Origin: Opitutia bacterium
Lineage (GTDB): Bacteria; Verrucomicrobiota; Verrucomicrobiia; Opitutales; T3Sed10-336
Length of the DNA stretch: 23,252 nucleotides
Direction: 5' to 3'
NCBI GenBank assembly: GCA_050506795.1
Contig: JBJHCF010000029.1
Location: forward strand, 44,369 to 67,620
Shown here: in pieces, positions 1-9,209 of the stretch
How the letters are laid out: each line of letters opens with the position of its first letter
Numbering within the stretch: position 1 is the stretch's first letter
Program-made: the position numbers and the translations under genes
Notes under the pieces: generated by a model
What the model saw: the letters and a program-made list of their open reading frames with translations, nothing else
Told to the model about the DNA's origin: nothing
Databases searched by the model: none

Positions 1-3000
1 CCCCAGGAGCAGGGCGAGCGCGGATTGACGGTCCTCCCGCCGACCGCAGGCCAGTTTCAGGGTTTTGTCTCATTTGGCGCCGTGGTGCGCACCGCCACGA
101 CCCAAGGCGCCCCGTCGCCCGTCACCTACAGCGACTACGCAACCAACACCCTTCCCCGCGGCGGTCCGGAGGGCGATCAAATCGTCCTGGCCCGCGCCCA
201 GGTCGGTGCGCCGTGGGTCAGCCGGCAGGTCACCTTCTTCTTCGGCAGTATCGTCCAGGTGCCAACCACGGACGAGCACGGCGAGCCGTTGGCGCAAGGC
301 GTCCGGCCCGAGGACTATTGGCTGGCCGAGCCCTACACCGCCGACGATCACGCCGACGCCGCCTATTACTGGAGCCCGCACGCGCGCGCGGTTTTCGCCG
401 TCCAGCCTGGTCCTATTTCAATCACCTGGCGGCGGAGCTCCAATCCCGACATTCACCATACCCAGCACTACATTGTTTCGGGCAGTCCGGTAAAGCCGCC
501 GCGGCGCATGTACTGGACCGAGGGTATCTTCAGTGTCTCCGGCATGCCGGTGCCGGTGCCCGTGGGTGTGTCGCCGAATTTCGTATACACACCGAATTTC
601 CCGCAGGCGGTGGACGAAGCCTACCGCCCTCCCGGAGTTTCCCTGCCGGTGCCGCCGCCGGGAGGCCAGATCTACGAGGAGTTGCGAACGGTTTACTACG
701 ACACCAACACCAAGCAGATCCACGCCTACAACTGGCAGGGACGCATCCTCCTCGAGCTGCTCGGTGATCTGATCGAAGGCAACCGCCAGCAGCACCTCGG
801 CTTTGAGATCGTTGATGTGGTTCGGCGGGTCAATCCGGCGGACGTAACCGTTGAACTCGGCGAGCGGCTCACCGCCTGGCCGGGCGGCGTGCCCGACGAC
901 TCGCACCTGCTCCCGCGTCTGCTGAACCGCCCGGGCGACTTCGATTTCATTTTCCAGCACTCGGTCGAGGGCCGGCGAGTGGAGATTTACGCCACCCGGG
1001 TCACGATCCACCAGAACGACTTTCTCCTCCACTGGACGGAGGCCGGCCTCGAGGGCCTGCGCTGGCCGTATCGATTCGCCCGATACAGGATGATCTGGCC
1101 GCAGGATCCGGCACGCTACAGCCACTACATGCGACCGGTGGTCGCGAACGAGGCGGAGGCGCGGGAAACGGCCATCCCTCTGCCCACTCAAAACGCGCCG
1201 GTGATCGAGTACCAGGATCCTCTGGACAGACCGCGGGCGCGAATCACCGAGACCTTTGCCTTCTACACCTTTCTGGAACCGCAGTTCCCCGGCCACCGCA
1301 CACTCATCCGCTTCACCTCGTCCGAGGATGTCCGCTTTGAGCGCGTCTTCTCCTGGCTGGGAGATGCTTTGACGGTCGCCGAGGACGACCAACTCCTGGC
1401 CAGCGACCCGCTGGCGGCGCTGCTCGGGCGAACGCCGGAGGAAGGCCAGCCGTCGCCTCCGCCGCCGATGCTGACGGGTTGGGACCCGGTGACAAAAAAG
1501 CTTGATGTCCGCAGCATCCCGAAGCGGGCGCCGCGCATTATCGAAGCGACCGCCGTCGTCGGCCGGCGCGTCACCCAGCCCGCGGACGAGCTGATGCCGC
1601 AGGCGGGCGCCGCCTACTGGGCCGGGCACATCCGCGTGGAAAAGGGCGACTTGTTCCACCCCGGCGCCTACCGGGATCCGTTTGCCGGGGGATTTGAAGC
1701 GGCCAACCAGGGAGCAATCATCCCGGTCAATGCCATCCCGGACCGGGACCGGCTCGAGGTCTGGTGGTTTCGCTCCAACGACGCCGAAATCGCCCAGGGC
1801 TTCCAGCCGATCTACTGGCCCTCGGTCGTCGGACGCTACAGCATCGAGTGGCCAACCGCCGCGCGTGAGATCGTCCTGGCCGGCAACCAGGGCAGCGGCG
1901 GCCTCGGCAGCCTGGAAGCCAAAGGAAGGATCTATTACCAGAACGATCCCGGCAAGCCCGGCTACAATCCCAACGAAGAACACGCCCTCATGATCGGCGG
2001 GCAGGCCTGGGCGCTGCGCGACGACCTCAACATCACCTCCGGGCCGGACTATTCCTCCGAGCCGTTCGTCCTGCTCGAATACGAGGGTGGTGACGGGCGT
2101 CCGTCGATGGGGGTTTTCCGCGTCCTGCGTGAAAAACCCGAGGCCGGATGGGTCTTTGATTACGTGGTGGAGGCGGGAACCATCCTCCAGCCCCCGATGC
2201 CTCTCGGCCTGCTGCCGCCGCCGGTGGAAGGCGAAGGAGCGCAGGCGGTGAATTTCAACACCGAGCCGCCGGCGACCGGAAACGACCTGCCCGGCGGGTG
2301 GAATCCGGAGTTCCACGATAGCGGGGAATTCGCCCATTACCCGCGATTCACCTTCCGCGACCGCAAGGAGGCCTTCTGGGTTTACCGCGGCCTGCATGCC
2401 GGTCCTCCTCGGCTCGAAGCTGGCAGCTACAATGTGGGCACGAACGACTTCGAGCCGCTGCCGTCCGCCGTGCTCCTGACAAATCAGCATTTTGAATACA
2501 CCGTCCACGCCTCCCACCGGGCCGATGCGCTGACGCTCGCCGCCTCGCCGGAGACAACCCTGCCTAGCTGGATGACCATCAGCGGGCTCACCCTGCGGGG
2601 AATGCCGGAAGAGGAAGAGACGCACGTGTTCACCCTGATCCTGTCGAGCACCGTCGATGGATCCAGTGTCAGCCTCCCGCTGGTGATGGAGGTGATCGCC
2701 GACGGAACGCCGTCGGTCCAGGGACCGCTGGTGATCCACAGCCTCAATCCCCACACCGGCACACTGGTCCACCATGTCGGCCGCCCGCCCTACCTGGCTG
2801 TTGCGCCGGCGCCGGAGAACAGTTTCACCATGCGCTTCTACTACAAGACGCGCGAGGGCTTCGCCTGGCCCGGAACTTCCGAGCCGCCACCGATCGACAG
2901 CATCGTGCCCTACCTGCGGGTACCCGACGGAGCCGGCGGTTTCGAGGGAGAACCGGACTCCGCCGACACGCCGTCGCTCGACATCGTTTACCGGCCGGCA

Positions 3001-8630: not shown

Positions 8631-9209
8631 ATGCGTCGGCGAGGGCGTTTTACCTCATCACGGCCCCACCTTTTGCTCGTCGTCCTCCTCTTCGCGTTCT
8701 ACGCCTGCTCGGACCCGCCCGAACCGGCGCCGCCTTTTGAAGCCCTCCTCGTCGACCTGGTACGCATCGAGGGCCGCCTCCACCTTGCAGGTGATGAGAA
8801 CCCCTTCACTGGAGTCATGGTCGAACACTACCCGGACGGCCGGACCAAGTCGCGAGTTGAGCTTGAAGATGGCGTGTTGCACGGTGTCGCGGAGGGCTGG
8901 TGGCGCGACGGCACCCTCCAGATGCGCGAACACTTCGTGGCCGGCGCCTCGCACGGCACCCGGCTGCGCTGGTATGCCGACGGAACGCGCGAGTCGGAGA
9001 CTGAGATTGTCAACGGACAGCTCCACGGCACGTTCAAACTTTGGCACGAAAATGGGGAGCTCGCCCAGGAGATCGAGATGCGCAACGGCAGACCGCATGG
9101 CGAGTCCAAGGCGTACTTTCCCAGCGGATATCTCAAAGCGGTTGCCGAGATGAATCAGGGCCAAGTCGTCCGGCAGTCGTTCTGGAACGATGGCGAGAGG
9201 CGTGAGTGA
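8631..9209 (+). CDS. MORN-variant repeat lipoprotein (YwqK antitoxin-like family)
   Basis: ATG at 8631 is followed by a basic n-region, hydrophobic LLLVVLLFA and a lipobox-like FYA|C. Then come five ~24-aa repeats of the form G-x4-[WY]-x2-G-x8-10-G-x2-HG. The ORF-track start at 8328 overlaps the previous gene. Confidence 0.85.
   Translation: MRRRGRFTSSRPHLLLVVLLFAFYACSDPPEPAPPFEALLVDLVRIEGRLHLAGDENPFTGVMVEHYPDGRTKSRVELEDGVLHGVAEGWWRDGTLQMREHFVAGASHGTRLRWYADGTRESETEIVNGQLHGTFKLWHENGELAQEIEMRNGRPHGESKAYFPSGYLKAVAEMNQGQVVRQSFWNDGERRE
8811..9170 (+). repeat. Five tandem ~24-aa MORN-variant repeats (protein level)
   Basis: GVMVEHYPDGRTKSRVELEDGVLH / GVAEGWWRDGTLQMREHFVAGASH / GTRLRWYADGTRESETEIVNGQLH / GTFKLWHENGELAQEIEMRNGRPH / GESKAYFPSGYLKAVAEMNQGQVV. 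Confidence 0.9.

Follow-up and report, generated by a model that had tools for sequence, protein, structure and literature searches.

A TcA-like giant gene and its fibre and adhesion partners form a conserved cassette in Verrucomicrobiota

Introduction

In the toxin complex (Tc), or ABC toxin, which has three components and needs all of them for full toxicity, TcA is described as the one that delivers; its receptor-binding shell faces outward and its pore is 2-3 nm wide (PMC10317148). Orphan tcC genes also exist, according to a survey that was anchored on TcC adjoining tcA/tcB and whose main text contains neither 'Verrucomicrobia' nor 'signal peptide' (PMC7861908). Here, we analyse a stretch of 23,252 nt from an Opitutia bacterium (GCA_050506795.1, contig JBJHCF010000029.1, positions 44369-67620, + strand; hereafter the window, with the contig labelled C29 and the genome G000), which opens on a giant gene with a predicted TcA-like fold, and describe the five-gene cassette to which this gene belongs.

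The giant protein resembles TcA (TcdA1, XptA, TcaA-TcaB, YenA1/A2) in its size of ~2600 aa, in the predicted order of helical lobe, linker, two-helix pore-forming domain and TcB-binding domain, and in carrying its variable binding modules in the N-terminal part, as TcA does its receptor-binding domains (PMC10317148). It differs in sequence (10-15% identity, no Pfam TcA hit), in an insert within the descending helix, in the lack of linked tcB/tcC genes and in having dedicated partners, here called up2, fibre, d1 and MORN (or a peptidyl-prolyl isomerase, PPIase, in place of the last). The core genes appear to encode signal peptides, in contrast to YenTc, which is described as folding in the cytoplasm and leaving by lysis (PMC10847048). 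Lysis genes were not seen among the recurring neighbours, as judged from clustering of those neighbours with no family search for such genes. Extracellular contractile injection systems and the type VI secretion system likewise combine a puncturing device with tail fibres whose tips are swapped. The needle of the cassette would differ from theirs in being a TcA-type helical hairpin, and none of the five proteins matched a sheath, tube, baseplate or spike family at cut-off in Pfam, NCBIfam or PHROGs.

We propose, with a probability of roughly 55%, that the cassette builds a Sec-exported, adhesin-decorated and surface-tethered needle of the TcA type, which pierces other cells and needs no TcB/TcC cocoon to do so. 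No description of this operon was found in the literature covered, which left aside most subscription papers and supplements, so that an earlier mention is possible; the examined parts of 10.1101/2023.11.21.568195, PMC7073777 and PMC13018210 mention no such system.

Results

The giant gene is the centre of a five-gene unit

An earlier note on this DNA, made from the window alone, had reported three co-oriented genes separated by 84 and 47 nt, and we reproduced this arrangement as three + strand open reading frames (ORFs) at the window start, the first of them open at its 5' end. The full unit comprises five genes on one strand, up2, fibre, giant, d1 and MORN (d2), with intergenic distances of 59 and 25 nt for the two that lie upstream. 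A 10-N assembly gap is found immediately 5' of the window and the giant's start codon precedes it, the gene beginning ~220 nt upstream of the window (ATG at C29:44146) with a signal-peptide-like N-terminus. Because the paralogue of the giant on contig C2 is a single unbroken ORF of 2653 aa across the corresponding region, the gap most probably arose during assembly.

This paralogue belongs to a second complete five-gene cassette in G000 (C2:195636-208357, locus L084), which has an identical gene order and 52-66% identity to the first, and whose MORN gene encodes a transmembrane anchor instead of a lipobox. The GC content of the two cassettes is 63.9% and 62.5%, against 58.9% for comparison, and a promoter and terminator scan performed no better than shuffles. 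G000 is 97.8% complete; its nearest GTDB relatives are titled Opitutales, and the best 80 loci are mostly titled Verrucomicrobiota.

The C-terminal third of the giant is predicted to adopt the TcA needle and funnel fold

The giant found no significant sequence match in Pfam, NCBIfam, PHROGs or the PDB (phmmer, and hmmsearch with two profiles). Pfam run on 72 homologues of the C-domain returned no TcA match, PF18276 included, and a plasmid tblastn was likewise empty. A further check against PF18276 was also negative, although its positive control gave no signal. The family itself is large, with 3139 homologues among the 7996 candidates scored and 1565 representatives after clustering at 50% identity.

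Structure gave a different picture from sequence. An AlphaFold2 monomer model of the last 1152 residues (aa 1401-2552; 89 sequences; mean predicted local distance difference test, pLDDT, 78.9; predicted template modelling score, pTM, 0.65) starts with a helical bundle and a non-helical linker of 29 aa, continues with a split descending helix that leads through a short tip into an ascending helix of 160 residues, and ends in a C-terminal domain rich in beta structure. Foldseek returned 22 matches at E<=0.001, all 21 that were listed being TcA, and the best non-TcA match had an E value of 0.32. In VIA, model residues 340-1149 aligned to TcdA1 2008-2516 with Z 15.2-15.3 (best non-TcA Z 10.9), and the alignment to pore-state TcdA1 covered 386 residues at 6.3 A. 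A search of 48,161 chains that was independent of Foldseek also ranked three TcA structures on top (Z 14.5, 14.0 and 11.0; next 10.0). The funnel domain alone matched 6l7i_A (TcdA1 2327-2516) with Z 8.5-8.8 over 148-153 aligned residues at a root mean square deviation (rmsd) of 3.7-5.0, a score that is independent of the long helices. Judged from these models, the assignment of a TcA needle and funnel fold to the C-terminal third (last ~810 aa) holds; the earlier note's label 'TcA-like' thus stands at the fold level for this part and fails at the sequence level. The helical bundle ahead of it (aa 1401-1735) has generic structural matches alone, and its homology to the TcA shell is not established.

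The geometry of the hairpin is nearly invariant. In one alignment of 32 homologues in which both subtypes of the family (see below) are represented, the second descending segment measures 93 aa in 32/32 and the ascending helix 157-161 aa in 32/32, the first descending segment measures 58-59 aa in 31/32 (one partial), and the insert between the two descending segments varies from 93 to 164 aa. Across 89 sequences no other part of the channel is as hydrophobic, or as poor in charged residues, as the tip (KD19 of the family reaching 0.78, and the charged fraction falling to 0.08). It is hydrophobic and rich in small residues in both subtypes, and the funnel domain is kept and highly conserved.

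Inserts in giant homologues are L-type lectin, LamG, P-domain, PA14, RCC1, NHL and Ig modules; in 6 of the 11 homologues mapped, the insert falls between aa ~457 and ~511 of the query. The N-terminal part also contains at least one internal repeat (hhalign 92%). In loci L011, L022, L031, L062 and L102 the giant is broken into several ORFs, through either sequencing error or decay.

The cassette lacks TcB and does not require it

The earlier note had observed that no tcB/tcC follows the giant, which we confirmed at the locus. It had proposed to check whether both are absent genome-wide: no SpvB or TcdB_midN match was found anywhere in G000 with working positive controls. G000 has eight Rhs-core matches, several of them near contig ends, and at least two of its large Rhs proteins have signal-peptide-like starts. 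SpvB occurs in 5 of the 55 other carrier genomes, so that 51/56 carriers, G000 included, lack it; four of the 55 were covered except for 8-24 kb. In those five it lies near up2 genes in G359, ~62 kb from the cassette in G081 and on separate contigs in the other three. Neither SpvB-type nor Rhs-core matches were found in the 115 giant-containing loci of the 121 examined, many of which are short contigs. The Rhs scan used a core profile, which recovered the genes in L112 and L115; an earlier query with the genome's own Rhs had missed L112. The cassette does not require tcB.

The nearest Rhs core within the window lies ~14 kb downstream on the opposite strand. This region (window 21563-23252, - strand) holds the 3' portion of an Rhs gene, which matches TIGR03696 and is close to the end of the contig. 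After it comes a gene of 268 aa whose N-terminus is hydrophobic and contains Cys, and which may be the immunity gene of this Rhs gene; the GC content drops to 47-52% here.

Partners are putatively exported and vary in their adhesion modules

All core genes carry signal-peptide-like N-termini, to judge by their translations: a hydrophobic stretch precedes the mature start in 39/39 up2, 40/40 fibre, 53/54 d1 and 22/22 giant homologues, compared with 50/500 in the background (homologues without a mature-start motif were dropped).

The structural model of up2 (pLDDT 91.7) contains an N-domain without assignment, an Ig domain like that of PapD/MSP folds (Z up to 9.5) and a small beta-barrel that weakly resembles PsbO, PagL and a Dot/Icm porin (Z 6.8-7.4) and whose His-rich motif is present in 67/78. 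A TcB-like propeller, or any known family, was considered for up2 and rejected, as no such match was found, a result that covers mainly the Ig domain and the barrel. Passengers fused ahead of the barrel include LamG lectins and BNR/sortilin repeats. At L120-L121 (G223:C133 14303-33850), a 6522-aa frame with LamG repeats followed by an up2 barrel lies directly 5' of the giant.

The fibre gene, which is of a trimeric tail-fibre-like kind, matches PF13884 (S74) over cut-off, with the SDxxxK motif present, and phrog_1980. It resembles the MAT (mosaic adhesive trimer) fibres of Bdellovibrio (NF053851) in its signal peptide, its ~130-aa beta-rich N-domain, its variable tips and the existence of S74 and non-S74 forms (PMC10769870), the binding partner of the MAT N-domain being described there as unknown. 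It differs from them in being shorter, in its fixed operon beside a TcA-like gene, in its absence from subtype II and in its NF053851 scores, which in four cassette fibres reach 28-39 bits (32.9 for the fibre here and 27.9-39.4 for three homologues) and so stay below the cut-off of 60. By pattern class, the 58 tips comprise 16 S74-like, 19 collar-type, 1 Kelch and 22 other, and up to three fibre-like genes occur at one locus. At L131 (G290:C1, 9265-10843), a barrel-only up2 gene adjoins a fibre gene in a genome where no giant was detected, from which we suggest that the up2 barrel and the fibre may dock with each other independently of the giant.

The variable parts of the cassette (giant inserts, up2 passengers and fibre tips) are adhesion modules, and no toxin domain was found among the proteins scanned. 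As variation is confined to adhesion modules, with none in toxin domains, selection seems to act on binding rather than on payload.

d1 has an N-terminal hydrophobic stretch, DxDxDG repeats and an RFFRL-type end, and matches TSP3_bac below cut-off (E 1e-4; 22.5 bits against 25). Strong hits of its N-domain in G000 are the two cassette copies alone, and the domain showed no relation to the N-domains of fibre and up2 by hhalign (probability <1%). Its C-terminal domain, used as a profile, has weak hits elsewhere in G000, and a loose pattern for the end motif, RF(L/F/Y)R, matched 92 ORFs of that genome, some spuriously, dozens of which encode large secreted proteins. This recurrence suggests that the end may be a phylum-specific C-terminal sorting domain, no description of which turned up in the literature covered; d1 is a putative tether or adaptor.

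The protein encoded at 8631, the putative MORN/YwqK lipoprotein of the earlier note, matches MORN_2 over cut-off (E 1.3e-13) and has a Cys after its hydrophobic stretch. The earlier designation as a MORN lipoprotein therefore fits this copy, but not most homologues, which are single-pass membrane-anchored (hydrophobic anchor in 37/38, lipobox-like pattern in 4/38). The immunity role that had been suggested for it lost ground on several counts: the gene is absent from 8/38 close and 20/20 distant loci, its slot is taken in one clade by a PPIC-type PPIase lipoprotein, no polymorphic toxin domain was found in the scanned cassette proteins, and the obligate linkage to a cognate toxin domain that marks toxin-immunity pairs is missing. 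Because a PPIase lipoprotein can occupy the same slot, we consider the MORN protein more likely to be a periplasmic assembly factor than an immunity protein. The gene is accessory, not core.

The cassette is syntenic and patchily distributed

We counted synteny at loci with enough flank, taking as close loci the best 80 of at least 558 confirmed GTDB stretches. The giant is flanked there by fibre in 50/50, d1 in 47/47, up2 in 45/45 and MORN in 30/38; the four-gene core is complete in 31/31 and all five genes are present in 26/31. d1, at 7744, which the earlier note had taken for a partner of the giant, is thus constant in the close loci, and it was also found in 20/20 distant ones (with a weak link in 11).

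Those 20 distant loci, drawn from the carrier set, have up2-like and d1-like genes in 20/20 each, a fibre in 9/20 and MORN in 0/20. Up2 and fibre accompany the giant more consistently than MORN does. Eleven of the distant loci form a clade, subtype II, in which up2 is mostly split in two, the fibre is missing and d1 is fused to cadherin, RTX or Calx domains; the link of this d1 is weak (probability 62%, E 8e-5), but includes 110 columns outside the DxDxDG repeats. The gene after d1 in subtype II has a PPIC motif in 8 of the 10 loci examined, and the one copy scanned against Pfam and NCBIfam was identified as a rotamase.

A sample drawn from the phylum gave hits of the giant in 58 of 401 Verrucomicrobiota genomes (56 strong and 2 short weak hits) and 44 of 184 genera; the giant was absent from 64/64 sampled genomes of one family. 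The up2 profile hit 61/401 genomes, namely all 56 strong carriers and 5 others. The cassette is widespread in environmental Verrucomicrobiota and apparently undescribed. Since the sampled carriers G054, G060, G180 and G197 are single-contig genomes, tractable strains may exist.

Discussion

How the needle might work

By analogy with TcA, the giant would oligomerise, probably as a pentamer, into a sheathed channel ~22-24 nm long, the linker of which would push the hydrophobic tip into a membrane. We propose that the subunits fold in the periplasm, where a factor anchored in the membrane would assist them (the MORN protein here and the PPIase lipoprotein in another clade), and that d1, by means of its phylum-typical C-terminal domain, holds the particle to the cell surface as a tether or closes it there as a cap, perhaps sitting on the funnel, which in Tc toxins is the docking site of TcB. 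Glycans of the target cell would be recognised by the lectin inserts of the giant together with the up2 passengers and fibre tips, be it an alga, protist or bacterium, and in that cell the needle would open a pore, killing or tapping it. The effect could come from the pore alone or from cargo encoded outside the cassette.

With the two-helix pore-forming domain and the TcB-binding domain present at fold level, and TcB and an adjacent TcC lacking, the cassette would work like TcA, yet is not an ABC toxin. A more specific picture, of a new class of cell-attached, spring-loaded TcA-type feeding or injection machine that is Sec-exported, tethered by d1, aimed by lectins and MAT-like fibres and supplied with cargo by the envelope rather than by an Rhs cocoon, is one we hold tentatively, as possible rather than probable. 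If it were true, about one in seven Verrucomicrobiota would be carriers, presumed polysaccharide scavengers would be contact-dependent attackers of algae, protists or bacteria, a TcA needle would operate outside Tc toxins, and the MAT N-domain would gain a candidate docking partner.

The family would keep the needle, drop B and C, gain signal peptides and sit with fibres in a fixed operon, a combination that Pfam and TcC-anchored surveys, such as that described in PMC7861908, miss. It raises new questions that can be tested: how a TcA needle acts when it has no cocoon, which protein takes the place of TcB at the funnel, and whether the abundant Verrucomicrobiota of soil and water are contact-dependent attackers of other cells.

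Several observations weigh against a puncturing needle. Whole-chain TM-scores to TcA are 0.14-0.21 at an rmsd of 6-20 A, long helices inflate Z, and the model is a monomer with a pTM of 0.65. The ESM atlas does point to TcA_TcB_BD clusters (0.91; 191/256 features), but its recognition of 1683, below the 2300 level, makes this support weak. The N-terminal 1400 aa have no sequence match, and a TcA shell and neuraminidase-like gate lack support there. The linker is short (27-32 aa in 31/32 homologues, one partial), and the ~100-aa domain that interrupts the descending helix is given no explanation by the TcdA1 alignment. The C-terminal 1200 aa are 60-84% identical among the best 120 hits, which suits a structural role equally well. 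Signal peptides were called by a hydropathy rule, with no trained predictor. Finally, L112 (G359:C264, 7989-15320) encodes a 2444-aa fusion of SpvB, FG-GAP, TcdB_midN and Rhs with a signal peptide. About 3 kb, in which a two-component pair is located, separate it from the split up2 genes and the fibre genes downstream, and the contig stops before a giant is reached; it is the one such linkage seen among the 56 carriers.

Alternative readings

It is unlikely that the TcA-like hairpin sits instead in the producer's own outer membrane, inserted from the periplasm, as a channel that exports or displays the fibres and up2 lectins and is no weapon. Such a channel would account for parts that all appear to pass through the periplasm, for the co-encoded membrane-anchored periplasmic factor, for variable partners that are adhesins, for the high conservation and for the lack of any toxin cargo found. 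However, the giant itself bears lectin, LamG, PA14, RCC1 and NHL inserts, which fit an outward receptor-binding shell as in TcA, and folded trimeric fibres and the 6522-aa passenger are large for a pore of 2-3 nm (PMC10317148); the distribution is also patchy (56/401 genomes).

Improbable, too, is a non-piercing adhesive appendage, in which a TcA-derived coiled-coil stalk would serve as a rigid scaffold presenting lectins and fibres to particles, polysaccharide or host surfaces. The tip, hydrophobic and rich in small residues in both subtypes, the fixed helix lengths and the retained, conserved funnel argue against it, although each identified variable domain is adhesive, secreted adhesin-like genes flank the cassette in numbers, no cargo was found and the linker is short.

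We regard as very unlikely a non-canonical ABC toxin, in which the giant would dock unlinked Sec-exported Rhs proteins or SpvB-Rhs fusions and inject their C-terminal toxins. The kept funnel, the Rhs genes of G000, the L112 fusion near up2 genes and the precedent of orphan tcC genes, as reported in PMC7861908, are all in its favour. Rhs cores occur in 42/56 carriers, but nearly as often in non-carriers (51/80), which gives no clear link among kin that are not independent; 14/56 carriers have none (drafts may miss them), and neither the giant loci nor most carriers offer an SpvB partner, as set out above.

An ordinary Tc locus with tcB/tcC upstream, the caveat raised in the earlier note, is ruled out by the genes found there, up2 and fibre, and by the SpvB-free genome. 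The other outcome that the note had named as refuting, giant homologues that lack synteny with the two downstream genes, did not occur either.

Set against these alternatives, the surface-tethered puncturing needle is the reading that we prefer, and the features on which it is built are located in Table 1.

Table 1. Positions of the cassette genes and of the domains of the giant (window positions unless a contig is given).
Feature	Position	Strand	Description
giant	1..7659	+	2552 aa in window; conserved N-terminal ~1400 aa with variable inserts, bundle, linker, hairpin, TcB-binding-like domain, near-invariant C-terminal end
giant 5' end, signal-peptide-like start	G000:C29:44146-44358, then 10-N gap	+	outside window
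fibre gene	C29:42522-44120	+	532 aa; MAT_N-like N-domain, S74 chaperone; upstream of window
up2	C29:40681-42462	+	593 aa; Trp-rich N-domain, PapD/MSP-like Ig domain, small beta-barrel with His-rich motif
hypervariable insertion site	1369..1533 (aa ~457-511)	+	L-type lectin, LamG, P-domain, PA14 or NHL modules in homologues; domain positions mapped to alignment breaks
helical bundle	4201..5205 (aa 1401-1735)	+	position of TcA shell lobe; generic helical-bundle matches, Z up to 9.7
non-helical linker	5206..5292 (aa 1736-1764)	+	between bundle and channel
helical hairpin	5293..6588	+	descending 59+93 aa, 104-aa insert (aa 1824-1927), ascending 160 aa; matches TcA pore-forming domain
hairpin tip	6031..6180 (aa 2011-2060)	+	hydrophobic, Ala/Gly/Ser-rich; putative membrane-entering tip
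TcB-binding-domain-like beta-rich funnel domain	6775..7647 (aa 2259-2549)	+	structural match to 6l7i_A
d1	7744..8583	+	279 aa; signal peptide (predicted), cassette-specific N-domain, DxDxDG repeats, RFFRL-type C-terminal domain
d2 (MORN)	8631..9209	+	192 aa; membrane-anchored MORN-repeat protein, lipoprotein-like in this copy

Neighbouring genes

Many large secreted adhesin-like genes flank the cassettes. At 22 close loci (for example L058:140-1957) a secreted Kelch-repeat protein recurs, mostly directly 5' of up2; it has a fibre-type N-domain in some and was not seen beside either G000 cassette. On the 3' side of the cassette, 13-15 close loci share two recurring genes, one for a small cadherin/Ig protein and the other for a protein whose end is PEP-CTERM-like (for example L051:17752-18573 and L022:20823-21722), the label of the L022 protein being read from its sequence. 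Loci of another clade (L086:15055-15732, also L090, L091 and L102) encode a different small membrane-anchored protein 3' of the giant, the L086 copy of which has no Pfam match.

Within the window, the cassette is followed (9391-19206) by unrelated neighbours: a Gfo/Idh/MocA-type dehydrogenase, an endonuclease/exonuclease/phosphatase, a PLD-family enzyme, a sodium:solute symporter, a GDSL lipase and a YhgA-like transposase. The same region holds (13316-15309) a gene for an ECF-type sigma factor (13844-14440) and one for its putative class of antagonist, an anti-sigma factor, along with a DUF3106 gene and a gene for a small, secreted, Gly-rich protein.

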